NCBI RefSeq assembly: GCF_029936995.1
Contig: NZ_JAPYRE010000006.1
Location: 1-40,000, forward strand
Direction of reading: 5' to 3'
Source: Henriciella sp.
GTDB taxonomy: Bacteria; Pseudomonadota; Alphaproteobacteria; Caulobacterales; Hyphomonadaceae
Length of the DNA: 40,000 nt
Shown: piece after piece, positions 316 through 20,017 of the stretch
Layout of the letters: the number at the start of each line of letters is the position of its first letter
Numbering within the stretch: the first letter of the stretch is position 1
Made by a program: the position numbers and the translations under genes
Notes under the pieces: generated by a model
The model's database searches: none
Told to the model about the DNA's origin: nothing
The model's input: the letters and a program-made list of their open reading frames with translations, nothing else

Positions 316-385
316 CAGGAGTCCGGCTGTAGGATGAATTGGTGAAGGGATGGTCCGGGCGCTGTCTCCGCGCTAGGTCTTGTGG

Positions 386-921: not shown

Positions 922-950
922 CCGCTCATCCCGGCGAAGGCCGGGATCTC
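922..950 (+). repeat. REP-like palindromic element, copy A
   Basis: Sequence CCGCTCATCCCGGCGAAGGCCGGGATCTC, with a 7-bp stem TCCCGGC/GCCGGGA around a GAAG loop. It is 29/29 identical to the reverse complement of 14946..14974. Confidence 0.85.
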
Positions 951-983
951 TCTCAGCAGAGGCCATACTCAAATTGCCGGAGG

Positions 984-1008
984 CCCCGGCCTGCGCCGGG
1001 GTCAGCGG
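984..1008 (-). repeat. REP-like palindromic element, copy A' (inverted partner of copy A)
   Basis: The reverse complement reads CCGCTGACCCCGGCGCAGGCCGGGG, two mismatches from copy B. The stem is CCCCGGC/GCCGGGG. It forms a convergent doublet with copy A, 33 bp apart. Confidence 0.75.
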
Positions 1009-1055
1009 ATAAAGGAAAGCCTTGGAATTGCTTTGCCGTGAGGCTAGCAGAAGCC

Positions 1056-1352: not shown

Positions 1353-1379
1353 CCGCTCACCCCGGCGAAGGCCGGGGGG
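1353..1379 (+). repeat. REP-like element copy B (5' portion), abutting the left end of the insertion; contains the left target-site duplication 1360..1377
   Basis: Sequence CCGCTCACCCCGGCGAAGGCCGGGGGG. The 5' arm CCGCTCA is present, but the usual 3' flank TCTC is missing here and is found instead after 14910. Confidence 0.8.
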
Positions 1380-1404
1380 TATAGTGATGTCTCAGAGAAA
1401 ATAT
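1374..1404 (+). repeat. left terminal inverted repeat
   Basis: GGGGGGTATAGTGATGTCTCAGAGAAAATAT compared with the reverse complement of 14866..14896, GGGGGGTATAGTGATGTCCGGTAGAAAATAT. There are 18 matches, then 4 mismatches, then 9 matches. The G6 run overlaps the duplicated target. Confidence 0.8.
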
Positions 1405-1438
1405 CTACGCGGTACAAGTAGAGCGAGCCCGAAGCTCG

Positions 1439-2464
1439 CTACGTCCGGTAGGTCCAGGGAGCGTTCAATTCGAACTGCTCCGATGTACAGAGGTAGAGCA
1501 GGTCGCGAACGGCGGTTATTGCATTTCCTGACTGATGTGGACGCGCATCCTGACTACGATGCATCAGCTCGTTACGTGCCTTTCTTAGTTCATTCAGCCG
1601 ATCGGTAAGGTATTTATCAAGCACCCCGTACTTCTCCAAATGTGCAATACGATCAGCTGCCCGCATTTCCTTCAACTTATTCTTGGAAATCGTCTCATCG
1701 CTACTTCTCTCGGCAAACCCAGCCTTGGCGGGATGCCCTACGACAAACCCAGCTGAGTACAACAACTCCTCTAAAAGCACTTCTGCAATTGTCGCACTGA
1801 GTGCGACGCTTGCTCCAGCGTGCTGACGAGAGTGGAGTACAACAGCTTGATAAGTCATCGTTATAAGAGCGGTGTAATCGGCAACTCTGTTTTCTGAATT
1901 GGCTGCCATCAGACGATCAGCAAGTTCAACACCCTCGCGGAACTGCTCGCTTGAAATTGAATTTTGCCATGCCGAGCGACCTTGTGGAGCTGCACTTGCC
2001 AGCAAAGCCCGTAGTCGTTGCTCGTCGCTCTTAAAAAACTCAACTTCGTTTGTGGTAGAGGATCGGTCCCAATTGAATAGCTCATCCAGCCCTGGGTAAC
2101 GTGGCTCCTTGATGGATGAATTTTTTGAGAAGGCGTACTTTCCGAATATGCAGGCTGATACAAATACCGCCTGCTCAAGTCGTCGGGTTTGAACTTCCAG
2201 CATGTTATCTCTGCTCTGAGTAACGACCTCAGGTATTACGCCCGGCGCGTCGCTATCAAATAGGTCGAACTTTCCAAGGTTGGTTTTTTCAAAATCGAAA
2301 GCGAGCAGACCTACATTGACTGCTACAACCGTCAGACCATTGTTGAGCGTATATTCGGCAGAAATTCGGGTAGTAAGCTTACGATCTCCGGAAGGCTGGT
2401 CATACGTGTAGTAGGCGTTCGGCAAGATCGCGAACCGGGTCGGGAACGGTCTAGAAATGATCAT
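1439..2464 (-). CDS. hypothetical protein with C-terminal HEPN-like Rx4H motif
   Basis: 341-aa ORF with low-GC codon usage. The C-terminal helical region contains LNELRKARNELMHRSQ, i.e. R-N-x-x-x-H (codons 1559..1576), the signature of HEPN RNase domains. I recognise nothing in the N-terminal ~280 aa. Confidence 0.45.
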   Translation of the reverse strand: MIISRPFPTRFAILPNAYYTYDQPSGDRKLTTRISAEYTLNNGLTVVAVNVGLLAFDFEKTNLGKFDLFDSDAPGVIPEVVTQSRDNMLEVQTRRLEQAVFVSACIFGKYAFSKNSSIKEPRYPGLDELFNWDRSSTTNEVEFFKSDEQRLRALLASAAPQGRSAWQNSISSEQFREGVELADRLMAANSENRVADYTALITMTYQAVVLHSRQHAGASVALSATIAEVLLEELLYSAGFVVGHPAKAGFAERSSDETISKNKLKEMRAADRIAHLEKYGVLDKYLTDRLNELRKARNELMHRSQDARPHQSGNAITAVRDLLYLCTSEQFELNAPWTYRT

Positions 2465-2479
2465 AGTATTTTCTTGAAC

Positions 2480-4090
2480 TCAGGAGGATATCGGCCAATC
2501 GGCCAATGGTATTTCACGCACCAATCTGTCCTTAACTTGATGGGTGGTCATGCCGTATCGTTTCGCTAATTCCTCGCAAGCGCTGTTGCGGCTCCTGAAC
2601 ACTTCTCCTTCAAACTTAAATGGTTTTGCGGAAGTAGGCCCCAAGGGAGCGGTCAAAGCCTCTTCAACACTCATTCCTGACTTAATGCGATAATCAAAAA
2701 CGTTTCGGCGGACGCCGTGCGCGTCCAAAGCAGCTTGTTTTGTCGTCCATGTCTTACCGAACGCGGCGAACTTCTTGCCATGTGTTCGCCGAACTACTTG
2801 CTTCGACGACATTAGCGTCCAATTGTCAGGTCCCCACGGTCGCGATTCATCTGAGCGCGTCAGCATTAGTCCAGACTGATCGATGGTCCCGATGTCGGAT
2901 TTAAATTGATTATAATCGAGCCAAGCTTCTTCTACGCCGCTCTCTCCCGCACGTTTGAGAATGCCTTTCCACTGCCGCCATAGTTCACCGCCAGCGTCTG
3001 GATGATTGCTTTGGGCTCGCGCTGTTTCAGGTAGGGGTTCGTTGTTTCGGTAGCGATTGATAATGACGTGAGTGGCCAACCCGGTTTCATCGGAGAGTAC
3101 TCTGGCCATCTTTTCTATCGATCTAAACTCTCGCCCCTGCCAATTTACTCGCTTTCCATCATATCGGCCAATCTGGCCTCCGGGACGGACATTGTATCCT
3201 TGTGGATGCAGGCTATTAAGCTTTTCAATCCAGAATATTTCTCGTTGATCCAGACCATCTGCCGATCTCCCGGCACTCTCCAAAGAAATCTCTTCTAGAA
3301 CTTGGAGCCTAAACGCAGCCCCACCTTTCTTTCGCAAGGCTTTATGAAAAGGTGTCTTGCTTCCAGTCTCAGCGTAATTGAGATGTTGTCGGAAGCGGAT
3401 TTGCGGTTTGTTGACTGTTAGCCCGACGTAGGTTTTTCCCGTCGCCTTTTCGATGATTGCGTAGATGTAGCCAGGTTCATTAGATTCGGTTGGTGGTTCA
3501 CGCAAAAGGTCGTCCGTATCCCACTGAGCCTTTCGTCGAGAGTTCAATAAGCCTTTGTCGGCGTAGCGTCCTATAGACTTCAAAAAGGCGGTGAAGCCAG
3601 AATAGTCGCCTTGAGCGTTTGGATATTCCGTACCAGAGTAAGAGAATCCGGAGCGCCGCCCACCTCCGTAGAAAGTCTTCCAGTCGGCGCTGGATAATAG
3701 GGCGGCATCGCGGAGTGCGGATTGGGATATTTCTGTTCTTCGCTTCGCTAATGAAGTGAGCCGAGTTCTGAAAACGGGATATTGAACGGAGCCATCGGCC
3801 AAATCAGCATAAAGCACGTCGACGCGTTGCTCGCCATCATCTGTCTCTACCCATGTCACTCGGGAGCCGTGTTTACGGCGATAAACCTCCGGCGTGGAGT
3901 ACAAACACTCCTCAACCACTTCTTCGGTTAATTCCCCTTGTTTCGCTCTCGTACGTAGACGCCCGCCGATTGTTACTGCTTTGTTTGTGGGTGGAGGTAC
4001 CGCTGCGTCTAATAGCTCCGACAAAGAGCGATATACATACCCACGAAAGGGAAGATTAGGGAGTTGGGCATTGTGGGCTCTCTTTGCCAA
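2480..4090 (-). CDS. multi-module GIY-YIG endonuclease (homing-endonuclease-like) with repeated putative DNA-binding modules
   Basis: 536 aa. The central GIY-YIG domain (about 3176..3478) reads PGYIYAIIEKATGKTYVGLTVNKPQIRFRQH...REIFWIEKLNSLHPQGYNVRPGG. There are four copies of a ~35-aa module: FRGYVYRSLSEL, WQGREFRSIEKMARVLSDETGLATHVIINRYR, FGKTWTTKQAALDAHGVRRNVFDYRIKSGMSVEEAL and FEGEVFRSRNSACEELAKRYGMTTHQVKDRL. Confidence 0.75.
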   Translation of the reverse strand: MAKRAHNAQLPNLPFRGYVYRSLSELLDAAVPPPTNKAVTIGGRLRTRAKQGELTEEVVEECLYSTPEVYRRKHGSRVTWVETDDGEQRVDVLYADLADGSVQYPVFRTRLTSLAKRRTEISQSALRDAALLSSADWKTFYGGGRRSGFSYSGTEYPNAQGDYSGFTAFLKSIGRYADKGLLNSRRKAQWDTDDLLREPPTESNEPGYIYAIIEKATGKTYVGLTVNKPQIRFRQHLNYAETGSKTPFHKALRKKGGAAFRLQVLEEISLESAGRSADGLDQREIFWIEKLNSLHPQGYNVRPGGQIGRYDGKRVNWQGREFRSIEKMARVLSDETGLATHVIINRYRNNEPLPETARAQSNHPDAGGELWRQWKGILKRAGESGVEEAWLDYNQFKSDIGTIDQSGLMLTRSDESRPWGPDNWTLMSSKQVVRRTHGKKFAAFGKTWTTKQAALDAHGVRRNVFDYRIKSGMSVEEALTAPLGPTSAKPFKFEGEVFRSRNSACEELAKRYGMTTHQVKDRLVREIPLADWPISS

Positions 4091-4122
4091 TTTGTCCTCA
4101 GTTTGCGTTGGTCTCAGCTAGC

Positions 4123-4344
4123 TTATTCATCGAGAGTTTGTTCATTCAAAAAATCTCGTGGGTGTACATTAAGCGCTTCAGCGATGCGCCCCAGCATTTC
4201 AACGGTCGGATTGTATTCACCCCGTTCAATGCCGCCGAGATAGCGCATATCCATGTCCGCTGTGAGTGCAAGTTGTTCCTGGCTCAGGCCCGCCTGCCTT
4301 CGAATTTTTCGAATGTTCAGGCCAACGACCTTTTCCCAAAACAT
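4123..4344 (-). CDS. XRE-family helix-turn-helix transcriptional regulator
   Basis: 73 aa with the classic Cro/C1 HTH: LNIRKIRRQAGLSQEQLALTADMDMRYLGGIERGEYNPTVEMLGRIAEAL. Confidence 0.85.
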   Translation of the reverse strand: MFWEKVVGLNIRKIRRQAGLSQEQLALTADMDMRYLGGIERGEYNPTVEMLGRIAEALNVHPRDFLNEQTLDE

Positions 4345-4378
4345 TCAGCCAATTAGTTAAACAAAATGCAACCTCACT

Positions 4379-4394
4379 AGGGTATATATACCCT
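4379..4394. promoter_or_regulatory. perfect 16-bp palindrome, candidate operator of the XRE regulator
   Basis: AGGGTATATATACCCT is its own reverse complement. It lies in the 93-bp divergent intergenic region between the XRE gene (start 4344) and the secreted-protein gene (start 4438). Confidence 0.5.
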
Positions 4395-4437
4395 ATTATG
4401 TGGCCTACCCCGTATGGATGGGCGAATGGAGGTTGCT

Positions 4438-5157
4438 ATGTATCGGTTCGTGACAGTTTTGCTTGTAGCGGGTGTGGCGTTTGCAAGCTCGGCAGATGCC
4501 GAACAAATCACACACCAAACGGAAGCCAACGCATCGCTAGAATTTAACTGGCCGGATATTAACTCTGACATCATTCCGGACGCTCGCGTGAAAGGCGCTG
4601 TCAGAGGTGCGAGAGAAAACTATCAAAGAGCAATTAATGCTGCCGAGCGGGCGAATGCATCCGCTGGGAAATTGCCAGGTTATATCGAAGAAGGAGAACC
4701 ATTCCGGGAGATTGTCTCTGAGGGTGTAATCCTCGAAGGCGTACTCTTCGATAAGGGAGTGCCCCCTCAACAGAAATTATTTGCCGGAGAAATCGAATAC
4801 GAGACGGGCTCTACCGCTCGCGGGCTTGTGGCATTCCTATACTATCCGGACATGTCGAATTGGGGGGAGGTGGTTGCAGACTTTGCACCCGAAAAACCCT
4901 ATTCGCAATTTGAAGGTGATATGAAGCGCCCGTCTGAAGCTGGCGCTTATCCAATGGAAGGCGTGCTCACATACCGCAATGGCGACACCTTCACTGGCTT
5001 GTTCTACACGTGGGGTGGGGCCAGCGGCATCTACGAAGCCGCGAATGGAAAGCGCAGTTTTTCAGGCGACTTCGATACCGTGGGTCTTATGATGCATCCC
5101 AAGAAAGGGGTGGTCGAAGATCAGAACGGTCAGCTTCTTTCGGTTGTTCTTGACTAG
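4438..5157 (+). CDS. secreted hypothetical protein (signal peptide; weak MORN-like repeats)
   Basis: ATG at 4438 is preceded by GGAGG at 4428..4432. The N-terminus MYRFVTVLLVAGVAFASSADA is a typical Sec signal. GVLTYRNGDTFTGLFYTWGGASGIYEAANGKRSFSGDF is weakly MORN-like. Confidence 0.55.
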   Translation: MYRFVTVLLVAGVAFASSADAEQITHQTEANASLEFNWPDINSDIIPDARVKGAVRGARENYQRAINAAERANASAGKLPGYIEEGEPFREIVSEGVILEGVLFDKGVPPQQKLFAGEIEYETGSTARGLVAFLYYPDMSNWGEVVADFAPEKPYSQFEGDMKRPSEAGAYPMEGVLTYRNGDTFTGLFYTWGGASGIYEAANGKRSFSGDFDTVGLMMHPKKGVVEDQNGQLLSVVLD

Positions 5158-5164
5158 ATACCTT

Positions 5165-6976
5165 TCATGAAAACACCGCAAGCGGCCTGGCATCTGGCTC
5201 AGGATATCCAGTGTCCCCCACCTTGTTCGCTTCTTTCCCAATCAACTGAACGCCGGTCACCTCAACGGTCCGGCGATATGTTTCTCCGGTATCGACCGGC
5301 CCGCCATTCTCGAACTTGTCTTCCGGGCTGAGATGATAGAGCGCTATCGCCTCAGCATAGGTCTTCAGCTGATCTAGGCTGATTGGCTCGCTGGTTTCGC
5401 GATCGAAGACCTTCCCGGCGAGACTGGCACTATCCCGTTCAAACGGCGCAATCGGTTTCGGCAACCTCATCTTTCGTGGCCGCCCCCGCCTAGACGGTTC
5501 AGCCTCTTCGACCGGCATATCCACCCAGGCTTCTGTCCTCGCCGTCGGCGCGGCCATGAATCCATAGGGCTTTACCCGTGCCTCGTATGGTTTCCCCGCA
5601 TTGAAATGCTTCATGTAGCGCAGCATTTCCGGGCTTGTTGCACCCCACCGCATCAAGGCCGGATTGGAGAGCGCTGGATGGAAATCGATGCGAACTTGAT
5701 CCGGCGTACCGTCCAGGGCGGCTTTCAGGATAAAGAACCAGAAATCATACTGCCAGCGATGGATACCCATTGCCCGTAAGTCTTCGATCGGCGGGGGAAC
5801 ACCGGGTGCTGGATCATCTTCCGAATAAGGCGGCATCCATTGCCCAAGCCCATGGGCTGAAGCTTTCCGAATGACCGGCAAGCCATCTTTACCGATATTG
5901 AACAAGGCATAGCGCTTGGCTGAAATCGCCCATGCAAACAAGGGTTCAATCTCTTCATCCGATCCGGGGGCATAGTTCACATCCTCGATTTGAAGAATGG
6001 AGCCCGCCTCCTTGTAGGGATTGAGGTGGGTGAACCAATCGACAACCGTGTTGACGCGAGCGTGAAAGTCACTCCGCGAAAGGCCATCAGGCCGGGCAAG
6101 TGCAATACTGTCTGTGTCGCAGAAGACCCAACTGAGGCCCGCATCCTGACCCACCCGTTCCGCACAGGCGAGCATGAGCCGCGCGGCGCCGGTGATCATG
6201 GCGGCGAGCACGGGATTGAAATATGTGCCGGGCCTCTCGCTTGCGGTTGAGTGGAAGGTGAAAGGCTTACCATCCAACCCGATGACATGCAGGTCTGCCG
6301 GATCGCTCAGATCATCGCGGACAATTTCGGCAAAGATGCCATAACAGGTCGAGTTCGCGAGGATTTTGAGCTGGCTCTGGATTGGGTCGCCCGCCGCTTT
6401 CGCCTCGTCCCGCATATCGATGAGCCGGACAAACATATCCTCCGTGTTCGGATCGAAGAGATATTCTTTCCGGCCCAAGAGATTTATCGGTCTCAGGTCG
6501 GGTTGTTTCGGTCCAGCCGTGAACCGCACGGCCTTTTCAATCTGCGGGACTTTGCCAGTCAGGAGTTTTGAAGCGACAATATCCGCCAGCGTGTACCAAA
6601 GAGGCTTTTCCGACACGACATGGTTTAGACCGATCGTCGCTGTCTGGCGCTCTTCGCTGTAGCGTGCCCGCACAGGCAAGGCGTCACTCTCCGGTCGAAG
6701 CTGCACGATCGCATGAAGCTCACCCCAGATGTCCTGACGGTTCAAATCTTCCAGGGTGACGTTTTCGAGAAAGCGCTGAATAGCTTCGGTGTCCTCGAAA
6801 TGATCGAAATGCGTCGCGACCAGGAAGGCATTCAGCCCCATGAGCGCATTGACGGTTGGATACATCGACTTGAAGTCGCAATAGACGACTTCGCGAATGG
6901 ACCGGCGGATGCGAACTTCCGCCCGCCCGCCATAATAGGTGGTCATGGTTTGCCCAAAGATTTGACGATTAAGCAT
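5165..6976 (-). CDS. polB: family-B DNA polymerase, polymerase (palm/fingers/thumb) portion
   Basis: 603 aa with YYGGRAEV (pre-motif A), VVYCDFKSMYPTV (motif A, DxxSxYP), LKILANSTCYGIF (motif B, KxxxNSxYG), VFCDTDSIAL (motif C, DTDS) and ISAKRYALF (KxY). The motifs are collinear with the phi29-type protein-primed PolB as I remember it. Confidence 0.9.
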   Translation of the reverse strand: MLNRQIFGQTMTTYYGGRAEVRIRRSIREVVYCDFKSMYPTVNALMGLNAFLVATHFDHFEDTEAIQRFLENVTLEDLNRQDIWGELHAIVQLRPESDALPVRARYSEERQTATIGLNHVVSEKPLWYTLADIVASKLLTGKVPQIEKAVRFTAGPKQPDLRPINLLGRKEYLFDPNTEDMFVRLIDMRDEAKAAGDPIQSQLKILANSTCYGIFAEIVRDDLSDPADLHVIGLDGKPFTFHSTASERPGTYFNPVLAAMITGAARLMLACAERVGQDAGLSWVFCDTDSIALARPDGLSRSDFHARVNTVVDWFTHLNPYKEAGSILQIEDVNYAPGSDEEIEPLFAWAISAKRYALFNIGKDGLPVIRKASAHGLGQWMPPYSEDDPAPGVPPPIEDLRAMGIHRWQYDFWFFILKAALDGTPDQVRIDFHPALSNPALMRWGATSPEMLRYMKHFNAGKPYEARVKPYGFMAAPTARTEAWVDMPVEEAEPSRRGRPRKMRLPKPIAPFERDSASLAGKVFDRETSEPISLDQLKTYAEAIALYHLSPEDKFENGGPVDTGETYRRTVEVTGVQLIGKEANKVGDTGYPEPDARPLAVFS

Positions 6977-7877
6977 CGTGATCCCTCCGCAGAAGCGGGC
7001 GAATATTCATTTCGCGCAGGAGGGCTTTGCCGAGACTGGCTTCACTGAGAATACGTTTGAGCGGCGTCGATAGACCGAAGTCCGCATAGGTTTTGGCGAG
7101 AGCCGTGTAACAATCCCAGGTCACTTGAACATCAGCCCGTGCATAGTCGAGATATTGCCAGCTAAGGGGGCCGCCATGCTCATCGGTCTCGTGTTTCCGT
7201 GTCGGCGTGTTCAGACGCTCTGCCAGTTTGCCGAGAGAGAACCGGCCTGAGAGAAGCGCTGCCGCCAAGGTCCGCACATCCAGAAAGGTCCCACGATTGT
7301 GTTCTGTTTTCTCATTGCGTTTGCGCATGCCTCGAGATTGCTGCTGATCACCCGGCGTGGCGAAATCCATAAGCGCGGCTGTGGCGTTGAGATGTTTGAC
7401 GCGAATGTTCGGATCGCTCTTCCAGCGGGTGGACCAGAATGTGAAGCCGCCACGCATACTGCCCCGCGCTTCGCTTGCTCCTTTGGCGATCCGGGCGATA
7501 TCAAAGGGTAGATTAAATCCGATGATCGCTCCATTGGCGCGATAGCCAATATCCAGAATGACACTCTTGCGGAAATCCTCGACGGTGAGAACCGTCAACC
7601 CGTTCGCGGTGGCATAATCGGAAATCAGCGTCTGTTCCGCCTGCGGTAAATCCGGCGCCGTGAAGATCACCTCCTTGATCAACACGCCGGCTTTACGGAT
7701 TTGAGCGACACCGAAGCGAAGCGTCTGGATCGCATCGCTTGTGGTTTCAGTGTCGAAGATGATTTGCCAATCCGATGTCAGGTCGAATTCAAAGCCTGCG
7801 GGGCGGAAGACCTTCGGTGTCCAGTTAGAAGGCTCGGAATAGGCCCGCACATGTATATGAGTTCTGAAAGTGCTCAT
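6969..7877 (-). CDS. polB: family-B DNA polymerase, N-terminal 3'-5' exonuclease portion
   Basis: IIFDTETT (ExoI, DxE), IIGFNLPFDIARI (ExoII, NxxxFD) and YLDYARADVQV (ExoIII, YxxxD). The likely start is ATG at 7877 (MSTFRTHIHV), overlapping the HNH stop as ATGA. The stop overlaps the next ORF's start as ATGCTTAA (6969..6976). Confidence 0.85.
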   Translation of the reverse strand: MSTFRTHIHVRAYSEPSNWTPKVFRPAGFEFDLTSDWQIIFDTETTSDAIQTLRFGVAQIRKAGVLIKEVIFTAPDLPQAEQTLISDYATANGLTVLTVEDFRKSVILDIGYRANGAIIGFNLPFDIARIAKGASEARGSMRGGFTFWSTRWKSDPNIRVKHLNATAALMDFATPGDQQQSRGMRKRNEKTEHNRGTFLDVRTLAAALLSGRFSLGKLAERLNTPTRKHETDEHGGPLSWQYLDYARADVQVTWDCYTALAKTYADFGLSTPLKRILSEASLGKALLREMNIRPLLRRDHDA

Positions 7878-8251
7878 TGGTCTGCCTCCTCGTCTTTGGA
7901 GGCGGCTTCGGCCTCTTCGATGAGGGACTGGCCGAATGACTTCAGCGGATGCGAAATCTGAAACAGCCAATCCGCCAGGGCATCGAGGTAACGCCCGATA
8001 GTCTCCCGGTCGGGGTCTTGGGTATTAGGCTTGAACGACATGTCTTTCTCCTTGTCGGTAGAATTGCGATGGCAATTGCTGCAAAGCGCTCCGCCCGTGC
8101 CGATCGCGAACTTTCTGGGTATGAGGTGGGCGAATTCGAGGGCTGCCGGGTGGGCGTTGAAAGCGCACCAGAGGCAGATTGGATGGCGTGATTTGAGGCG
8201 CCGGAAATCGGCCTCGCGCCTTAGGTCTTTTCGGGTAATGTCAGACAGCAT
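7874..8251 (-). CDS. HNH endonuclease-like protein
   Basis: 125 aa with CLWCAFNAHPAALEFAHLIP....GGALCSNCHRNSTDKE, i.e. a CxxC ... H ... CxxCH arrangement typical of the HNH/zinc-ribbon nuclease core. Confidence 0.65.
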   Translation of the reverse strand: MLSDITRKDLRREADFRRLKSRHPICLWCAFNAHPAALEFAHLIPRKFAIGTGGALCSNCHRNSTDKEKDMSFKPNTQDPDRETIGRYLDALADWLFQISHPLKSFGQSLIEEAEAASKDEEADQ

Positions 8252-8268
8252 GATGCAGTCCTCCTTCT

Positions 8269-8847
8269 TCAGGGGTTGGTGATCTTGTAGATTTCGTGGA
8301 ATTCCGGCTCGCTCTTCAGGGCGTAGCGGATGATCGAATTGGGATTGGTTTCGAACGGGTAGAACCGGCCTTTGATGTCGGTCACGCCCTGTCCGCGATA
8401 AGGCTCAAGAAAGCGAGGGTCTTTGCTCCGCAGGAATTTCCGGATGTCGTTATGGTAGTGCCCGGCAAGGCTCGCGGGCGCGAAGCCTGGTACAGTGACG
8501 GCCTTGGTCTTGGCATCCTGGATGACCGGAATACGCCGGGGGCGTGTATCTCCGATGACCCAACGGCGGCCCTGCTTCTGGCCAAGACCGGTTTGAGCGA
8601 GATACCAGGACAACCGTTCCGGTGAGATGCCCGCGTCCCTGGCGGCAGCGGTCATGGACATGCCGCCATTCATGATTTTCAGGGCTTCATTGATCTTCGC
8701 GTCCGCGCGGGGCGGTGCGGCTTTCCCGGTGGCACGGACCTCGGATGGCTTGGGATGTCCGCGTGCCTGGGAGAGGCTTAAACCCCGAGCGAGACCGCGT
8801 TCCTTGCGGCGTCTATATTCGGCTGCGTAGTTGCGTTTGCGGGCCAT
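8269..8847 (-). CDS. putative DNA-binding (HTH) protein, first gene of the HNH-PolB operon
   Basis: 192 aa with a basic N-terminus, MARKRNYAAEYRRRKERGLARGLSLSQARGH. The HTH-like segment is GGMSMTAAARDAGISPERLSWYLAQTG. Confidence 0.5.
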   Translation of the reverse strand: MARKRNYAAEYRRRKERGLARGLSLSQARGHPKPSEVRATGKAAPPRADAKINEALKIMNGGMSMTAAARDAGISPERLSWYLAQTGLGQKQGRRWVIGDTRPRRIPVIQDAKTKAVTVPGFAPASLAGHYHNDIRKFLRSKDPRFLEPYRGQGVTDIKGRFYPFETNPNSIIRYALKSEPEFHEIYKITNP

Positions 8848-8849
8848 GC

Positions 8850-8876
8850 TCGATCCGATTGCTGCGTTCGGATCGA
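8850..8876. promoter_or_regulatory. 9-bp inverted repeat immediately upstream of the HTH-HNH-PolB operon
   Basis: TCGATCCGA (8850..8858) and TCGGATCGA (8868..8876) are perfect reverse complements, starting 3 bp upstream of the start codon at 8847. Confidence 0.35.
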
Positions 8877-8936
8877 ATTTCGGAGAGCACGCCGTTCAGT
8901 AATAGATTTCAGAAACGTCCAACATAAAATCGGACA

Positions 8937-9632
8937 TTATTGAACGTTTTTGGACGGCCAGAGCCCTGCTTTTATGAGGTTATTTCTCGTGATGAAAAAT
9001 GAGGTTCGGCCGAACTTTTGATGTACGCCCTGCTTGCTGTATAGCTTCCGAGCCATTCGGACTGCTTCACTGCGTTGTTGGCTCGCACTCCACTGATGAA
9101 AATCGTTGTATACGTTCAAGCACTCTAGAAGAACCTTCCGCCGGTACATCTCATAAGAATGAGCGCCGCCCGGCTTCGCGTGTTTGTGCGGACTCTTTTG
9201 CTTGCGGTCAGTATTGCTGCTAAATGTTGCTGCGGTCTCTCGACCATGTGTACTGAGATCGATCAGTTTGATGCGGTCGTATCTAAGACTTTCATCGCCT
9301 GCGCTATTCTGGTCGATGTCTAGTTCGGCAGTTGGCCAGAAGCCCGCGGGTATTCGATCGAGCCGATTACCAGCTCCACCGAAGACGCAGCGTCCAATAG
9401 CCTCGACCTGTCCTCGGGATAAATCCGTCACGATCTCATCGCGGGCACGACGCCAGACATCCTTATGCTGTAGGCCGCGCAGCATGTAGTCCGCTGTCGC
9501 CTCTGACACAGGATGATTGGAGGCGTTCCACTTCTCCAGCAATTCCGGATTGTCAGGGAGAGACCGTTTTCGACTTTCAAAAAAGTCTCTCAGCCAGACG
9601 CCATCGGCCCATATATTCTCGATATTTTCCAA
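8937..9632 (-). CDS. hypothetical protein, divergent from cas1
   Basis: 231-aa ORF with low-GC codon usage and no motif I recognise. A 40-bp gap separates it from the divergently transcribed Cas1 gene. Confidence 0.5.
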   Translation of the reverse strand: MENIENIWADGVWLRDFFESRKRSLPDNPELLEKWNASNHPVSEATADYMLRGLQHKDVWRRARDEIVTDLSRGQVEAIGRCVFGGAGNRLDRIPAGFWPTAELDIDQNSAGDESLRYDRIKLIDLSTHGRETAATFSSNTDRKQKSPHKHAKPGGAHSYEMYRRKVLLECLNVYNDFHQWSASQQRSEAVRMARKLYSKQGVHQKFGRTSFFITRNNLIKAGLWPSKNVQ

Positions 9633-9672
9633 TGATCTATGCTATGGTTTGGCCAGAAAAGTGGGGTGAGTT

Positions 9673-10755
9673 TTGGCTTTCGAAGCTGGTCAAGAAAACG
9701 AGACAATCGAAGCTGACGAATGGTCTATTCGTAGCAAATATTGGTTAGCCAAAAACGAAGCTGGTCTGTCAAAACGAAAACGCCGCGAGCGCCGCAAAGA
9801 CCCGCTCATTCTGGTCGGTTACGGCCTTTCGATGAAGGTCGACAATGGCCGTCTGATCATCCAGGACGGCGCCACGCATTTTCCGAGTAAACCCGCTCAA
9901 CACGTCTTCTTCAAAGGTAGTCTCGACTTACCGCCGCGGATCATTGTTTTGGATGGTGCGGGCTCAATCACACTCGACGCCTTGGATTGGCTGACAGAAC
10001 AGAACGTCCCGCTCATTCGTATCAGATACAATGGCGAGTTCTTCTCGCTGGTCACATCTGGCGGTCAGGCCGCTGACCCGGATAAGTTTGCCTGGCAGAT
10101 TAGAGCCCGCGAAGACGACGCTGAGAAACTGACCTTCTATCTACCACTCATGCGCGACAAGCTAGCTAACGCGCTCGCAACACTCGACGGTTATCTGCCT
10201 GCTTCTGAGGCTCGCGATAAAGCTGAAGAGAAAATCGGCAGCTATCTGCACCGGCTGCAGAATGATCCGCCGGATAAGCTAAAGTCTCTGCTCGGTATCG
10301 AAGCACAATCCGCCAGTCTCTATTTCGCCGCATGGCGGGCGCTGGAAATCAATTGGCGGGAAAGCAAGCGTCATCCTATTCCGGTGGAGTGGCGCAGCTT
10401 CTATTCGCGGGGCTCGCTCGCCGTTCTGAACAAAGGCGGGGCCAACATCTTCGCGACACATCCCGTCAATGCGATGCTGAATTACGTCTACGCAGTCCTC
10501 CTCGGAAGAATGCAGCTTCAAGCGATCACGGAAGGCTATGATCCGATGCTTGGTGTGGTCCACACGCGACGACGCTCAAGCTATGGCCCGCCTCGGCCCG
10601 GCTACGCGATCGACATCATGGAGCCGCACCGTCCGGTAGTCGATCGGATCGTTCTGAAATTGATCAATGAGGAGACGTTTTCCGGGGCGGATTTTGATTT
10701 GCAGAGTGATGGGGTGGTGCGGGTTAATCCGGAATTTGCTCGAAGCCTGGCTTAA
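9673..10755 (+). CDS. cas1: Cas1-family integrase homologue (stand-alone; casposase-like)
   Basis: 360 aa with a TTG start. The N-terminal beta domain reads PLILVGYGLSMKVDNGRLIIQDG ... PRIIVLDGAGSITLDALDWLTEQNVPLIRIRYNG. The helical domain has the Cas1 catalytic pattern: GIEAQSASLYF (Glu210), HPVNAMLNYVYAVLLG, PMLGVVHT (His297) and YAIDIMEPHRPVVD (Asp314/Glu317). Confidence 0.85.
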   Translation: MAFEAGQENETIEADEWSIRSKYWLAKNEAGLSKRKRRERRKDPLILVGYGLSMKVDNGRLIIQDGATHFPSKPAQHVFFKGSLDLPPRIIVLDGAGSITLDALDWLTEQNVPLIRIRYNGEFFSLVTSGGQAADPDKFAWQIRAREDDAEKLTFYLPLMRDKLANALATLDGYLPASEARDKAEEKIGSYLHRLQNDPPDKLKSLLGIEAQSASLYFAAWRALEINWRESKRHPIPVEWRSFYSRGSLAVLNKGGANIFATHPVNAMLNYVYAVLLGRMQLQAITEGYDPMLGVVHTRRRSSYGPPRPGYAIDIMEPHRPVVDRIVLKLINEETFSGADFDLQSDGVVRVNPEFARSLA

Positions 10756-10798
10756 CAGATTGATACCTGCGAGTAGTCGGAAATCACTGAAGAAACAG

Positions 10799-13700
10799 CT
10801 AAGAAATTCCCGGCTTGTTTTCCTGAGAAATTCTTTCTTCAGCTTCCCGATCAGCCCAGCCTTGGTCACTGGTGGCTATCGAGCGCAACAACGATTGCGT
10901 ACGCGGAAAGTCGTCTAGCTCATCCGCCCACCGCCGAAATTTTTTGGCTGACTCAGCGTAGTAGTCTTCCATAGGTCCCGAAATAACTCCGCGAGAATTG
11001 AACTGTCCTGTGCGCAAGGCAGAGATCAGCCGCTCATTTGGATACTTCTCAATCACTTTACGTACGGCGGTATGTGGCCAGATGTTATCCGTGGGATCGA
11101 CTGGCGATTTAGAAAGCAACTGCCCGATGGCTATTGAGGCTCCTTTTTCGAACCGCTTATCCCGCGCAATCTCAAAGAGCTTCTCAACCCACAACATCAA
11201 CGCGTCATCATCGATACGCCCTTCACTCGAACCAGGCATTACGTTCATGTTTTCAATGATGTGGAAAGCCGGTCGCCACATTCCTTCGTCGGGCTGATCG
11301 TCGCCCAACGAAGAGGCCTGCCTGGGCTCGTCTTTCGGGGCATCATCCTGCTTGTACAGAATTGGAATTAGCTCGAAGAACTCTGCAGGCTCTTTCGCAA
11401 GGAATCTGTACAGCGCAGGAGTTCTTTCCGGACCATTGAATCTAAGCGTCTCAGCTAGCGGAAATTCGAGCTTTGCAAGCTCGCTCAAACTCAAAGCACC
11501 GCGGTCTTCAGCGATGCCTAGGAGTTCCCAGTAGTGATATAAGTCAAGCTGTCCTCTTGGCCGTCCCTCACTATGAGCGTTCGACACACTTTTTAGGTAC
11601 TCGTTCGCAGTTAGCCGAACAGTTTCGATTGGCACGGAAGGATCGTTCGCCACCACATGAGCTAAGTCGTGGATGCGGCCCACGCTTTTGAACCCGTCGA
11701 CAACGGCCTGCGAAAGGTTATCGCCCACGAATGAGTATGCATTGGCTGATCTCCAAAATCCTGAAGATACTTGCGGTGGTAATCCCCCAGTTGTCGCGGC
11801 ATCCAGAATTGGGGTCGCGTTATAGAGCCCTTCCCCAACTAACTCGCTGAGGTGTTTAGAGAACGCGTCAGTCTTGGAATTGATAATAGCAACCCATTCG
11901 GCTGGATTTTTTATGGCAGCTCCTCGGGACATTCCTCGGATGAGTTCTTGGCCGTGCTCACTATCCGGGGACACCGTCAAGATGTGATCCATAATTGCTG
12001 AGGAGTTGGGCGTGGCTTGGGCTAAAGCTACCCCAGCGGCAAAAGGCGATGCCACTTTTTGCAAGAAGTCTGAAAGCTCATCTGCGTACTTATTGAGTAT
12101 GCCTTCAAGAGCCAACCTTCGCAGTTCAGCCAAATCGCTTTGCGGATCATCGGTTCGCTCGCGAAATGTCTCGACCCAGCTCGATTTAAACAGCCAAAGA
12201 TAACGGTTGGAGTTATCTGGTTGAAGTCTTTCAAACTCCATCTCCAACTGACTTAATCGTTCATCCTCAATCGCCCAATCAGCATCGGAAAACTGACGAT
12301 GGCGTCCGGTGAATGTTCTCAATGCTTCGACCAATTCGTCCGCGCCGGTGTCATCGCCATTGATGCTGGATATGTGCGCAACAAAGCGCTCGAATAAGTC
12401 GTTCACCATGGAAGGCACGCATTCTACCAACTTTGCCAGATCAGCGGCATTTGTCGAAGCAACACTGATTGCTTGATCAACCGCTTCATCACGAACTTCG
12501 TAAAAATCACCCCAAGTTAAGCGTTGCTCCTGGACCCTTGAGAAAATTGGTTTGCTGGTGCTCATCACAATGCGCCCGCCCCTATTGTCCAATAGAGGAA
12601 CTAGCAATTCCAAAACGTGCGGACCGAACTCGTTTGCTAGACCGCGAATGATCTTCGCTCGTTGCTTTGTTCCTGCAGCTGTTTGAGGCACACCAAAGGA
12701 CAGAATTCCCTGGAGCGACGATAAAGGCTGATTTCCTTGCCTTTCATCGATTGGGGACACTGCCAAATGAAGCTTCATCAAGAGCCGACAAACAAGCTCT
12801 ACATGCTCGGACAACCAGGCGAGGCGTTCGAGGGCCCACAAAAGAGACGCCCCCAAATGAAAATCCATGAAACTAAACTTGGACTCTTGCGCCTTAAAGA
12901 CTGCGGCCATTCCTTCGGCGTTCCCCTCGATGGCCGCTTCGAGGGACTCCAGAAAAGGCTGAGGAGCGCCTTCGGCGAGTAGGGGCAACCATTCTTCGAT
13001 GGCAGCACCAAATTTGGGATTATCCAGAAGCTGAGGGACGCTCGATTGATAGACGCTGCGACACCAATCAGCACATTTCTGTCCGTGAGGACGAAGACTC
13101 AAGTCGGGGTCTTCGCCAAATACCCCGATCAAAACAAAGGTAAGTATCACCCCTCCGACAAAGTCACTGCTGAAGCCGGAATATTCTGAAGGGTCGAAAA
13201 CTTGATCTCTATCTACACCCTGCTGAACTTTATCGTTCAACACTACACGGAGTAGATTCTCGAAAGCATCGTAGTCGTCGTCAGTGTAATAGCGTGCAAG
13301 CCTAAAAAATGCGTCGACTGGTCCATTTAGCGTTACGATGCTAGTCGTCGCAACAAACATGGGGTCTGCCGAACCAGCTCGGGCCAGTGGATTTCGCCCG
13401 TACTTGCGAACGACCGACTCGATCTGTGAATACGTTTCAACACCTGCGTGTTGCTTTAGTGCTTCAACATCCTTGTAGATGAAGTTTCTCTTAGCTCCGT
13501 GCTCGCCTCGCTCTTCACGTCGGACAGCTCGACTTACGTTCCAAGCAGCAATCATTCCAAGGCGTTTGAGAAGTGGGGCGTCCGTTAAATCTGGATCAGC
13601 CCATGGGCATTTCTCCCCTTCGACAGTACCTCTAAGCCGTTCTAGTGCAGACAAATTTCGCCCGGCCGCTTTTTCAATGGTTTCGGCGTTCTGCGAACCA

Positions 13701-14689
13701 ACCGGTTTAATATGTTTTGCGAATGTCGACACATCAGGTCGTTGGAGCAAATAGCAACTCGCTAGACCGGGGTCGGACGAAATAGCTTTAGCAACCAAAA
13801 CGGAGTGCCGCTCCAACCGATTTGGATAAGCCGCCGCTTCTCCTTCGAGGATTACGATATGTCGAGTTCCAACCTTTTTGAGCAGATTCAATCCGGCTTC
13901 GTTTTGGACGCAGACGACCGGAATATGCTCTAGTTCTGGAGAGCTCAAACATAGTTGGCAAGCTGCCACGGCTGCCTCTCTGTCTGAATTCCCAAGCAAG
14001 TAGCTAATGGGTTCTTCTCTCAGGAGTGCATCGCGTAGTTCGAGCAGTGACGATTGCCCGTCGAGAAGGATTTCTGGCGAGACTTCGTCTCGAAAACGAC
14101 GCTTCCAAAGACTTATTCGTTCTTCGGCAGAACAGACTCCGTATGCAGAAGCATTGGGGATTAATCCGATTTCTTCAAGCAGCCATAGGCAAGTATCGAC
14201 ATCCCGGTTTACCCAGTCAATTAATCGAGACTGATCAAAAAGCACCACCTTCTTGAACTTCGTGTCCTTGGTGGCCTTTTCCTGCCAAAGCACCTTTTTC
14301 TCTTCGCCCTTTTTGCCGACCTCAATCTCGCCTGACCAGGTAGCCCGCCCAACCATGACGAATGCAAAATCGCTAGGCTTAGCCAACGCGTTTTCGACTC
14401 TTTCGAGTTCCTCGTTTGCTTTCTTGATGAGACCGGACCGCGAAGATGTAGCACCATATTCGATGCAAACGTTGCCCTCTGGTATTCCTTCACATTTTTC
14501 CTCAAGTACAACTACACCATCAAATCCCGTGACCCGATAGTTTTCACCGTCGACAGTGTAGGTGTTCGCGAGTTTTACTCCTCCCGTTGATACGTTGAGT
14601 AAGCGCTTGAACAACTCGGGAAGGATTTTTTCCCAGTCTGCATTCTTTTCGGTAGATTCGAAATGCGTCTTTTCAATTAGTCGAGCCAC
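10799..14689 (-). CDS. very large hypothetical protein (~1300 aa), mostly alpha-helical
   Basis: The track ORF is 10799..14728 (GTG). An in-frame GTG at 14689 is preceded by AAGGAG (14695..14700) with 5-nt spacing, so it is the more likely start. No Walker, helicase, methylase or clear nuclease motif is seen by eye. Confidence 0.7.
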   Translation of the reverse strand: MARLIEKTHFESTEKNADWEKILPELFKRLLNVSTGGVKLANTYTVDGENYRVTGFDGVVVLEEKCEGIPEGNVCIEYGATSSRSGLIKKANEELERVENALAKPSDFAFVMVGRATWSGEIEVGKKGEEKKVLWQEKATKDTKFKKVVLFDQSRLIDWVNRDVDTCLWLLEEIGLIPNASAYGVCSAEERISLWKRRFRDEVSPEILLDGQSSLLELRDALLREEPISYLLGNSDREAAVAACQLCLSSPELEHIPVVCVQNEAGLNLLKKVGTRHIVILEGEAAAYPNRLERHSVLVAKAISSDPGLASCYLLQRPDVSTFAKHIKPVGSQNAETIEKAAGRNLSALERLRGTVEGEKCPWADPDLTDAPLLKRLGMIAAWNVSRAVRREERGEHGAKRNFIYKDVEALKQHAGVETYSQIESVVRKYGRNPLARAGSADPMFVATTSIVTLNGPVDAFFRLARYYTDDDYDAFENLLRVVLNDKVQQGVDRDQVFDPSEYSGFSSDFVGGVILTFVLIGVFGEDPDLSLRPHGQKCADWCRSVYQSSVPQLLDNPKFGAAIEEWLPLLAEGAPQPFLESLEAAIEGNAEGMAAVFKAQESKFSFMDFHLGASLLWALERLAWLSEHVELVCRLLMKLHLAVSPIDERQGNQPLSSLQGILSFGVPQTAAGTKQRAKIIRGLANEFGPHVLELLVPLLDNRGGRIVMSTSKPIFSRVQEQRLTWGDFYEVRDEAVDQAISVASTNAADLAKLVECVPSMVNDLFERFVAHISSINGDDTGADELVEALRTFTGRHRQFSDADWAIEDERLSQLEMEFERLQPDNSNRYLWLFKSSWVETFRERTDDPQSDLAELRRLALEGILNKYADELSDFLQKVASPFAAGVALAQATPNSSAIMDHILTVSPDSEHGQELIRGMSRGAAIKNPAEWVAIINSKTDAFSKHLSELVGEGLYNATPILDAATTGGLPPQVSSGFWRSANAYSFVGDNLSQAVVDGFKSVGRIHDLAHVVANDPSVPIETVRLTANEYLKSVSNAHSEGRPRGQLDLYHYWELLGIAEDRGALSLSELAKLEFPLAETLRFNGPERTPALYRFLAKEPAEFFELIPILYKQDDAPKDEPRQASSLGDDQPDEGMWRPAFHIIENMNVMPGSSEGRIDDDALMLWVEKLFEIARDKRFEKGASIAIGQLLSKSPVDPTDNIWPHTAVRKVIEKYPNERLISALRTGQFNSRGVISGPMEDYYAESAKKFRRWADELDDFPRTQSLLRSIATSDQGWADREAEERISQENKPGIS

Positions 14690-14865
14690 GTCCGCTCCTT
14701 GTTCAGGCCCAAGTTGATTCGGTATCACTTATGTTGAGTAGAGCAACATTATTTGGTGAGCTCAGCAAATTAGCCCGCCTCATTGGCTCATTGAACGGTG
14801 AAACCACTAGATGTCACATCGATCATGATCGAGGAGCTTTCAGTATCGCTCGCCTGATGAGCGCA

Positions 14866-14896
14866 ATATTTTCTACCGGACATCACTATACCCCCC
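14866..14896 (-). repeat. right terminal inverted repeat
   Basis: ATATTTTCTACCGGACATCACTATACCCCCC. Its reverse complement matches 1374..1404 at 27/31 positions. Confidence 0.8.
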
Positions 14897-14914
14897 GGCG
14901 AAGGCCGGGGTCTC
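14893..14914 (+). repeat. right target-site duplication = 3' portion of REP copy B
   Basis: CCCCGGCGAAGGCCGGGG is 18/18 identical to 1360..1377 and is followed by the TCTC flank seen in REP copies A and C. The CCGCTCA 5' arm is absent because the element end abuts directly. Confidence 0.8.
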
Positions 14915-14945
14915 CATGAGACTTGGTCCGGAGCTTTTACTGCCC

Positions 14946-14974
14946 GAGATCCCGGCCTTCGCCGGGATGAGCGG
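14946..14974 (-). repeat. REP-like palindromic element, copy C
   Basis: The reverse complement is 29/29 identical to copy A (922..950). It lies 31 bp beyond the TCTC flank of the restored copy B (14914), about 35 bp beyond its hairpin, mirroring the 33-bp spacing of the A/A' doublet. Confidence 0.85.
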
Positions 14975-15152
14975 GGGTGGGGATTTCAGGGCGGGTGTGT
15001 CCGATCTGTTTCAGCCCCTCAAGGCCCAAGCGGCTTCGCCGTGCCTGCGGCAGCCTTGACCGCCTGAAACAGATCGAAACAGGCTGGCTGTGGCCGAATG
15101 GCTCGGTGGGCCATTCGGCGTGAAGGTGAGTTTACTGAATTAGCTTCACTAG

Positions 15153-15695
15153 CTACAGTAACGAGGTCAGAAAGCTGAGTAGAGCATAAAGTACCGACCC
15201 GGCTAAAACTAATAGCCCAGACCAAATCCGGTGTCGTAAATCACCTATAGCCCATTTCCAAAAAGACCGCTTGGATTTAAATTCTGATTTCCGGCCAGAA
15301 ATACGATGTTTTGCTTGTGAACAAGCTCTGTGAAAACGTCCGTCGCCAAACGGCACTATTTCTGACGAGTTGTGGCTGTATCGATTTTTTCTTTGCTCCT
15401 CGTAGTGATGGCTGCACCAATCAGAAAAGACATCAATCGAATTAGATGCCAAGTCAAAGTCCATAAGCCTGATCGGAGTATGATTTGCTTCGTATCGGAG
15501 AAGCTCATCTTCGAGTTCGTCGCCGTATTTCGCTACCGACTCGGCTAGAACTCTTTCGAATTCTAACCAGTACCTAGAGTTGTCTATGAAGCCGCTACTG
15601 ATTGCGTCGGATTTAAGTTCGGTAGTTTTTATGGCCGTCTCCTGCTCAATCGAGTGACGATGAGTATCTAAGTTCGACTCGAAAAAGGTCGTCAT
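15153..15695 (-). CDS. hypothetical protein with C-terminal transmembrane helix
   Basis: 180-aa ORF in AT-richer sequence outside the right TIR. The C-terminus WSGLLVLAGSVLYALLSFLTSLL is a predicted membrane anchor. Confidence 0.5.
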   Translation of the reverse strand: MTTFFESNLDTHRHSIEQETAIKTTELKSDAISSGFIDNSRYWLEFERVLAESVAKYGDELEDELLRYEANHTPIRLMDFDLASNSIDVFSDWCSHHYEEQRKNRYSHNSSEIVPFGDGRFHRACSQAKHRISGRKSEFKSKRSFWKWAIGDLRHRIWSGLLVLAGSVLYALLSFLTSLL

Positions 15696-15743
15696 TACCG
15701 TTGGCTAAGTCCGGCAGGAGTTTGGTGCCTCAAGATATCCGCC

Positions 15744-18194
<2,451 letters not shown>

Positions 18195-18271
18195 TCACAG
18201 TACCCCTCAAATATAGAGGAATCGGGGGCAAAAGGAAAATAACGGGCTGTGTTTTGCGGCGTGTTTTGCGC

Positions 18272-18307
18272 CCCTGTAAAACCTTTATTATACAAGGTTT
18301 TACAGGG
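18272..18307. other. 14-bp perfect inverted repeat (hairpin) between the crotonase stop and the gyrB start
   Basis: CCCTGTAAAACCTT, an 8-nt loop TATTATAC, then AAGGTTTTACAGGG. No flanking U-run on either strand, so this is not a canonical intrinsic terminator. Confidence 0.5.
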
Positions 18308-18337
18308 TATGGCATGCAGCTTTTCCGGGCGGTCTGC

Positions 18338-19964: not shown

Positions 19965-20017
19965 GACGGTTTACCCCTTGGCTCCCGCGCCGGGCCCATC
20001 CGGGCGCGAAAAAAGAC

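Follow-up and report, generated by a model that had tools for sequence, protein, structure and literature searches.

A probable family-3 casposon beside gyrB in Henriciella and its apparent use of a REP-like palindrome as target

How does a gene for a Cas1-type integrase come to lie beside gyrB in a bacterial chromosome, and what determines the site at which it is found? The question is raised by the first 40,000 nucleotides of contig NZ_JAPYRE010000006.1 (assembly GCF_029936995.1), the whole stretch analysed here and referred to as the window, which comes from a metagenome-assembled genome (MAG) of an uncultured Henriciella sp.; exact matches of its proteins lead to the record GCA_029936055.1 (contig JAPOGI010000005.1). 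[quoted passage not shown] The components of that reading, namely Cas1, a family-B DNA polymerase (PolB), terminal inverted repeats (TIRs), a target-site duplication (TSD), the lack of any other integrase and the lack of CRISPR linkage, were all recovered in our analysis. We conclude that the block at 1376-14894 is very probably an integrated family-3 casposon of the HenMar-C2 lineage in the Henriciella sp. chromosome, and by its sequence the element appears to be near-intact.

The Cas1 homologue (360 aa; 9673..10755, plus strand; WP_300380418.1) matched the Pfam Cas_Cas1 profile (E 2.1e-31) and scored above the cut-off of TIGR00287, in agreement with its earlier identification. In the PDB its best match was to the Methanosarcina mazei casposase (6OPM; E 2e-17), and every CRISPR-associated Cas1 ranked behind this enzyme. 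Residues E210, H297, D314 and E317 were invariant in an alignment of 11 family members and aligned with acidic and histidine positions of the M. mazei enzyme. Pairwise identities suggest that the protein groups with the bacterial casposases (HenMar, NitAL212), and no Cas1 relatives were found on PLSDB plasmids. None of the 11 open reading frames (ORFs) of the element matched a tyrosine or serine recombinase or a DDE transposase, as had been stated before.

The ends of the element are sharply marked. The sequence GGTATAGTGATGTC occurs exactly twice in the 40 kb, at 1378-1391 (+) and 14879-14892 (-), against a chance expectation of 0.08, and the 14-nt terminal core of the inverted repeats is exact. 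Counting the outer GGGG, the repeats are 29 nt long with 25 matches, the left at 1376..1404 (+; GGGGTATAGTGATGTC-N4-AGAAAATAT) and the right at 14866..14894 (-); written as the 3'-ending strand, the element end reads ...CACTATACCCC-3'. The terminus 5'-GGGGTATAG was conserved in relatives, where it is followed by YGATRTC and an A/T-rich block, and these relatives lie at unrelated genomic positions, so that the element boundaries are fixed independently of the window. A direct repeat of 18 bp, CCCCGGCGAAGGCCGGGG, surrounds the TIRs, and its two copies (1360-1377 and 14893-14910) are identical. The first-pass annotation had reported 31-bp imperfect inverted repeats and an 18-bp direct repeat; both are present and the latter is exact, but the inverted repeats measure 29 nt and the duplication itself is likelier to be 14 bp.

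The length of the duplication requires explanation. The 18-bp repeat is itself palindromic, and a repeat finder therefore extends the inverted repeat through it to 46 nt; the loop GAAG, however, has the same orientation in both copies, which makes the repeat direct and not inverted. The repeat is palindromic, the element terminates in GGGG and G is also the last letter of the target stem, which leaves it ambiguous whether 14 bp or 18 bp were duplicated. We consider 14 bp the more likely reading (range 14-18), since the target of the relative L002 is GATA-CCTGCGCAAGCAGG-TATC, the published duplication of NitAL212-C1 points the same way and complete relatives have duplications of 14-16 bp. With a 14-bp duplication the TSD copies are CCGGCGAAGGCCGG at 1362..1375 and 14895..14908, each the core of its 18-bp repeat, and the casposon spans 13,519 bp.

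The duplicated palindrome appears to be one copy of a local repetitive extragenic palindromic (REP)-like element. When the casposon and one repeat copy were deleted in silico, the virtual empty site gave a 30-nt match, including both flanks, to three intact local REP-like copies of ~30 nt, at 922..950 (+; CCGCTCAYCCCGGCGAAGGCCGGGRTCTC), 979-1012 (-) and 14946-14974 (-). When folded, the restored site forms a hairpin whose stem is 8 bp long, and GTCCGCTCACCCCGGCGAAGGCCGGGGTCTCCATGAG is the REP-like hairpin that we propose as the target sequence of the casposase. All five REP-like copies in the 40 kb lie less than 500 bp from the casposon ends. As a separate observation, a small GIY-YIG gene of the host (1056-1340; Pfam E 5e-15) is bracketed by inverted REP-like copies at 984-1012 and 1349-1377 (29 nt, 90%), and either a small mobile unit or a cluster of REPs is conceivable for the stretch 979-1377.

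Cas1 scans returned 17 related loci from genomes and more than 500 from metagenomes; the closest relatives, L113 and L112, came from the polymerase search. The core order PolB-HNH-192aa-(variable)-Cas1 was shared by 20 or more loci, which come from Hyphomonas, Hirschia, Henriciella, Maricaulis, Nitrosomonas, Bradyrhizobium and many metagenome contigs. These comparisons assign the window element to the HenMar-C2 lineage as a new member; family 3, to which this lineage belongs, is a known family and not a rare one. L112 is Henriciella marina DSM 19595 (AQXT01000002.1, ~2.81-2.84 Mb) and carries a GDSL/SGNH hydrolase and a glycosyltransferase; we take it to be HenMar-C2 because this cargo fits the published description (Krupovic et al. 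2016, PMC4779613). The window element resembles HenMar-C2 in the gene order Cas1, 192-aa protein, HNH, split PolB, in protein identity (HNH 86%, 192-aa protein 77%, PolB 68-73%) and in an end, ...CATCACTATACCCC, that stands beside a GC-rich palindrome; the HenMar-C2 end also abuts a DinB_2 gene 65% identical to the DinB gene of the window (380-913). The two differ in Cas1 (58% identical), in target hairpin (CTCCCGGATTCGGGAG in HenMar-C2), in host species and in cargo, which in the window element consists of GIY-YIG, HEPN-like, XRE and 1309-aa genes in place of the hydrolase and glycosyltransferase. The earlier guess of a Henriciella marina element or a relative of it was thus close: HenMar-C2 is the nearest named element, but it is not the window element, and the host is the Henriciella sp. 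MAG and not H. marina.

L113 (Logan contig SRR23274229_13599) is the closest relative overall, with identities of 86% for a 231-aa protein, 88% for the XRE regulator, 82% for HNH, 70-73% for PolB and 63% for Cas1. The element is complete, measures 15.9 kb and is flanked by a palindromic duplication of 16 bp, and it shares with the window element the split PolB, the terminus GGGGTATAGTGATGTC, the XRE regulator and a 247-aa protein. It differs in genomic site, in having RHS/YD-shell toxin-like cargo in place of the GIY-YIG and HEPN-like genes, and in having two genes of ~580 aa in place of the 1309-aa gene. NitAL212-C1 of Nitrosomonas sp. AL212, also of family 3, has a TIR beginning GGGGTAT, a 14-bp duplication, HNH and the conserved helix-turn-helix (HTH) protein, whereas its Cas1 bears extra zinc-binding and HTH domains and its duplication is not palindromic (PMC4046053, Fig. 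S2); the Nitrosomonas loci L008 and L009 share the whole core with the window element, with Cas1 36-38% identical. The family-2 casposons of A. boonei and M. mazei likewise combine a Cas1-type integrase, a 14-15-bp duplication, a CDTDS-type PolB and HNH (PMC5137440, PMC6614799, PMC6977970). These are archaeal, however, their casposases have a C-terminal HTH, and their targets are tRNA gene 3' ends read asymmetrically via an upstream 'leader', in contrast to the symmetric hairpin of the window element.

The polymerase of the element is encoded in two ORFs on the minus strand. The first (603 aa; 5165..6976) carries motif A (DFKSMYP), motif B (KILANSTCYG), motif C (CDTDS) and KRY, and the second (302 aa from an ATG at 7877, in an ORF that extends to 7970; 6969..7877) carries Exo I (FDTET), Exo II (NLPFD) and Exo III (YARAD); PGAP names both hypothetical. 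All Exo, A, B, C and KxY motifs are therefore in place, and the AlphaFold (AF2) model of the 603-aa ORF (predicted local distance difference test score, pLDDT, 85.9), compared by Foldseek, matched known family-B polymerases, so that the earlier assignment of a family-B polymerase in two ORFs holds. The further label of a protein-primed type is less secure. The Pfam DNA_pol_B_2 match remained below cut-off (23 bits vs 25.8), the sequence F-C-D-T-D-S of motif C was invariant in the nine relatives and in 50 homologues, and the model matched phi29 polymerase (E 6e-8) and the archaeal 9°N/KOD polymerases (E 4e-7) about equally, with probability 1.0 and TM ~0.3. A sequence search of the PDB gave no match for the fused PolB or for a nine-member profile, and no candidate terminal protein for the polymerase was identified. 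The PolB_CDTDS cluster of Kazlauskas et al. (2020), which includes the A. boonei casposon polymerase, is divergent and lies between the main and protein-primed groups (PMC7544198); family 2/3 casposon polymerases have been related to the RNA-primed PolB3 (Krupovic 2014, PMC4046053), and the literature places them outside the protein-primed group. The nearly equal match of the model to phi29 and archaeal enzymes agrees with the PolB_CDTDS placement, and therefore a protein-primed type is not established; by its motif C the polymerase belongs to the casposon-specific CDTDS group.

In nine relatives PolB is a single frame of ~905 aa. Here the frame changes at GAT GCT TAA TCG, which has one T more than the unsplit relatives; with this extra T the exonuclease ORF stops, and the polymerase ORF begins at an ATG 8 nt upstream of that stop, giving an 8-nt overlap, with GGAGG 7 nt before the ATG. 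A sequencing error was considered as the origin of the frameshift and rejected, as the junction was found in an independent assembly and the same split occurs in HenMar-C2 and L113. In these two elements the split is identical (302 + 608 aa, an 8-nt overlap and RGGAGRGAYYACG-ATG-CTT-RA, with TAA or TGA as stop), and GGAG-N7-ATG is common to all three. The six half-ORFs contained no internal stops, and pairwise ratios of non-synonymous to synonymous substitution rates (dN/dS) were 0.10-0.16 for both halves, with dS near saturation. Since the split has been kept in three diverged elements with such ratios and without internal stops, it appears to be an inherited, selected state of this sub-lineage and not decay. 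The GGAGG 7 nt before the ATG fits re-initiation, and we therefore think it most likely that translational coupling yields two polypeptides, as which the split polymerase then works. A +1 frameshift at the junction may be an alternative, which sequence alone cannot separate from coupling; a prfB-like programmed frameshift was not retained as the preferred reading, given the poor slippery codon and a Shine-Dalgarno spacing that better fits initiation at the ATG. Several other PolB homologues of 604-626 aa with 54-57% identity (P0156, P0184, P0194-P0196, P0232) might be split as well, or their gene calls might be truncated.

It is against this background that a dead casposon, immobilised by the PolB frameshift and decaying in place, has to be judged. 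Such a reading could draw on a polymerase in two frames where most relatives have one, on inverted repeats that match at 25 of 29 positions and on the absence of an empty site among the genomes closest by GyrB. We nevertheless think it unlikely: HenMar-C2 and L113 retain the same split and 8-nt overlap at a protein identity of only ~70%, both polymerase halves are open and bear the low dN/dS given above, the polymerase and exonuclease motifs are complete, none of the catalytic residues of Cas1 has been lost, and the 18-bp duplication is still perfect.

Indirect signs of mobility came from related loci. L005 (951-12504) and L086 (1022-12908) have host flanks that are 96.5% identical, and in the same terminator hairpin they carry casposons only 66-77% identical with different cargo; the loop of the hairpin differs by host (CTCTT vs TGAAT) and is the same in both copies within each host. 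A search for the empty site through the closest GyrB homologues yielded no true empty site; L023 has a REP-like hairpin that is not interrupted, and L026 has another casposon. The latter is a second family-3 casposon 3' of gyrB, in Henriciella with 91% GyrB identity, whose Cas1 is 57% identical and whose PolB is unsplit (907 aa); it occupies a different hairpin, and ~50 nt away lies a conserved 134-nt element which the window has too. This second casposon (L026/L027/L028, ~13310-22424; Henriciella MAGs GCA_002695925.1 and GCA_002720235.1) carries a PNP_UDP_1/response-regulator protein and a 1134-aa Y4jQ protein.

We then asked how far the palindromic target extends across family 3. We took 22 distinct insertions whose terminus could be recognised and scored the 13-16 nt next to it for complementarity of the five outer positions. 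A perfect GC-rich palindrome (5/5) was found in 14 of the 22, against a background of 0.6% of all 16-mers and 1.3% of GC-rich 16-mers from the same loci; further palindromic targets were seen in L004, L050, L068, L084, L112 and L113. Some are REP-like hairpins (the window, L001, L002, L046) and others canonical terminators (L004, L005, L086). Their common form is CC-N10-12-GG, so that CC follows the joining site on each strand, and CC directly after the cut is a known target determinant of the A. boonei casposase (PMC6614799). The searchable literature mentions palindromes within some TIRs. No report of a palindromic target preference was found in it, although the supplement of the 2016 paper and a 2017 review lay outside its coverage, so a prior report is possible.

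These observations suggest a mechanism. By analogy with family-1 and family-2 casposases, the enzyme would join both 3' ends of the element to opposite target strands 14-16 bp apart, and gap repair would then duplicate the sequence between the joining sites. From 22-27 independent insertions, the lineage would appear to pick short GC-rich palindromes (REP-like or terminator hairpins) of the form CC-N10-12-GG, and because such a target is palindromic both joining sites would meet the same sequence, each on its own strand. The polymerase would presumably copy the element. The combined proposal, that a Hyphomonadaceae-centred group of family-3 Cas1 proteins specifically recognises, duplicates and can re-hit short GC-rich palindromes, spreads through host repeats and has a working split PolB, we regard as evenly balanced on present evidence.

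Several points weigh against our reading of the block, its mechanism included. The split in PolB might still lower activity; the TIR arms mismatch at 4 of 29 positions; no occupied and empty pair was found for this site, the closest genomes (GyrB 91-93%) differing 3' of gyrB; and the HNH and HTH assignments are made from motifs and position only. To our knowledge, no family-3 casposase has been assayed biochemically, the integrases studied being those of archaeal families 1 and 2. In five of the 22 insertions, from Nitrosomonas and soil lineages, a palindrome was lacking, which means that the preference does not hold throughout family 3. Finally, the background of the palindrome test was mostly coding DNA, and intergenic DNA is richer in hairpins.

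This last point, together with the description of family-3 elements as intergenic only (PMC4779613, PMC6614799), could be taken to mean that the preference is a by-product of landing anywhere in the hairpin-rich intergenic DNA of GC-rich alphaproteobacteria. We find this improbable. In every complete element the midpoints of duplication and hairpin agree to within ~1 nt, 14 perfect palindromes among 22 would call for a frequency per site well beyond what intergenic DNA could plausibly offer, and in L005 and L086 the same hairpin has been hit twice independently.

A different objection would count the GC-rich palindromes as the outer tips of the inverted repeats, belonging to the element and not to the target. 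A palindrome reads as a direct or an inverted repeat alike, which is how the inverted repeat comes to extend to 46 nt, and HenMar-C1 was drawn in this way in 2014, with a TIR starting with the palindrome and a 1-nt duplication (Fig. S2, PMC4046053). Yet the asymmetric loops have the same orientation on both sides (GAAG in the window; GCAA, CTTC, TCTT and ACGTGAT in the complete relatives L002, L003, L005 and L050), the palindromes are wholly unlike between elements with the same termini, intact REP-like copies lie nearby with no casposon in them, and the left flank holds only the left-arm context of the REP-like element and the right flank only the right-arm context. Because of the loop orientation here and in relatives and of the intact copies nearby, we read the 18-bp palindrome as duplicated target, and the opposing view seems very improbable.

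The HenMar-C1 case may itself be explained in the same manner. Identity of the window element with HenMar-C1 was excluded, the latter having the TIR GGGGATAAGGG, a length of 16.3 kb and Cas4-helicase, methyltransferase and kinase cargo. L004 (1975-14899) has the HenMar-C1-type end GGGGATAAGGG and lies in a terminator hairpin that is duplicated on both sides, and for this reason the published HenMar-C1 annotation probably took the target duplication into the TIR. Two other loci are of interest for their ends. In L084 a casposon (2194-20221; TIR GGGGTAAAGGGG) lies exactly between two outward-facing 41-nt arms that resemble the ends of another casposon type (...GCTTATACCCC / GGGGTATAAGC...), an arrangement that might be explained as the junction of a tandem array, as a foldback element or as the scar of an excision. 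L029, a TARA scaffold of 13,008 bp, starts and ends inside the duplicated palindrome of its casposon, from which we infer that the assembly broke at the repeated target; contigs of this kind could pass for linear or viral genomes.

Comparison with CRISPR adaptation is natural, as the integrase of Cas1-Cas2 is homologous and its duplicated repeat is often palindromic; E. coli Cas1-Cas2 favours sites near cruciform-forming inverted repeats (reviewed in PMC5137440). Cas2, an array and a leader are present there, whereas here a 13.5-kb insert has defined ends and a duplication of 14-16 bp as against 25-50 bp. The earlier statement that the 40 kb hold no cas2, other cas gene or CRISPR array was upheld for a CRISPR-like tandem array and, apart from cas1 itself, for cas genes among the element ORFs and larger host ORFs, with the cas2-sized host ORFs of the window scanned in part. 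A CRISPR adaptation remnant or a solo cas1 in a defence island, as the PGAP name 'CRISPR-associated endonuclease Cas1' and the defence-like cargo might suggest, has a negligible chance of being the right description in place of a transposon, given this outcome, the casposase as best solved relative, and the strict linkage of cas1 to PolB-HNH-HTH within conserved inverted repeats at unrelated loci.

The remaining core genes lie between PolB and cas1. An HNH-like zinc-finger nuclease (125 aa; 7874..8251, minus strand; CxxC...H...CxNCH) has C26, C29, H42, C57, N59, C60 and H61 invariant among relatives; the motif agrees with the HNH assignment of the first pass, but the Pfam HNH match was weak (best E 0.027, in 5 of 9 members). 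A conserved casposon protein of 192 aa (8269..8847, minus strand) is present in all relatives and is presumably an HTH protein, with only weak and sporadic HTH/ANT matches; of the two HTH proteins named earlier, it was the other, an XRE-type regulator of 73 aa (4123..4344, minus strand), that had a firm profile match (HTH_3, E 1e-16). A 231-aa protein (8937..9632, minus strand) keeps its position between the 192-aa gene and cas1; the relatives L002 and L005 showed weak similarity to it, and it had no family match in Pfam. Nor did the 247-aa protein (4414..5157, plus strand), which has a hydrophobic N-terminus and is 56% identical in L113.

The variable cargo (the XRE, GIY-YIG, HEPN-like and 1309-aa genes) looks like carried defence or addiction genes. 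The GIY-YIG nuclease (536 aa, or 474 aa from the PGAP start; 2480..4090, minus strand), rightly recognised in the first pass, matched its profile at E 1.3e-8 and resembles homing endonucleases, with a match to a group I intron endonuclease below cut-off. The HEPN-like protein (341 aa; 1439..2464, minus strand) retains that name on the strength of an RNELMH motif and a weak C-terminal match, DUF4145 (E 1.3e-3) and HepT-like (E 4e-3) both falling below cut-off. The large cargo protein (1309 aa, or 1296 aa from the PGAP start; 10799..14728, minus strand) had been called an orphan of ~1300 aa. It had no Pfam model and no PDB sequence match, and a word-indexed search gave six relatives; exhaustive phmmer, however, found 2,643 cluster representatives (50% identity), mostly of ~1,250 aa, so that it is no orphan. 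Some distant relatives have an N-terminal XRE-type HTH, and distant relatives adjoin GmrSD, HEPN, AbiE, reverse transcriptase, kinase and type I restriction-modification genes; a defence role is plausible. A model of the first 420 residues (pLDDT 83) gave weak matches (E > 5e-3) to AAA+/STAND-like proteins and PD-(D/E)xK nucleases, and D70, E90 and K103 are conserved. We tentatively assign the N-terminus to a PD-(D/E)xK-like domain followed by an AAA+/STAND-like domain.

The composition profile of the window supports the earlier impression of a lower-GC block, with GC of 0.49-0.57 from ~1500 to 15700 and 0.61-0.69 on either side. The low-GC DNA reaches ~800 bp past the right inverted repeat and covers a 180-aa ORF (15153-15695). 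This ORF stands between gyrB and the right end of the casposon, beyond the inverted repeats, and does not belong to the element; as its slot is also low in GC, the block is larger than the casposon. The ORF had no family match, and its slot holds a different gene in every related genome (89, 238 or 289 aa). Also in this interval is a structured non-coding element of ~134 nt (14997-15130), with 24-nt inverted arms (15002-15025/15053-15076), a second hairpin and a fold z-score of -4.4. It is 92-94% identical 3' of gyrB in other Henriciella (L023 9437-9569, L024 9186-9267), where the surrounding DNA is unrelated; Rfam gave no match for it or for the window, and no tRNA was found in the 40 kb. The insertion is intergenic, between the host GIY-YIG gene (ending at 1340, with the DinB gene beyond) and the spacer on the gyrB side. 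The rest of the window consists of ordinary host genes (gyrB, recF, dnaN, dnaA, mutS, malic enzyme, transporters), which confirms the gyrB-recF-dnaN-dnaA neighbourhood described before. The independent Logan assemblies of SRR21607485 and SRR21607486 were 100% identical over the parts they covered.

The locus also exposes problems of annotation, with a casposase labelled CRISPR-associated, both PolB halves called 'hypothetical' and published HenMar-C1 ends that probably include duplicated target. Family-3 casposases are made experimentally approachable by a symmetric palindromic target, repeated use of sites and a conserved split polymerase. The substrate is defined (end GGGGTATAG), the target would be a symmetric 14-16-bp GC-rich hairpin with intact copies in the window, and natural sites have been re-used, so that it becomes testable whether a Cas1-type integrase reads and duplicates a palindrome. 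If the reading proposed here is true, these casposons would form a lineage that propagates by way of a repeat family of its host, and would offer a living case of Cas1 making tandem copies of a palindromic repeat parted by foreign DNA, a step that has been proposed for the origin of CRISPR repeats.

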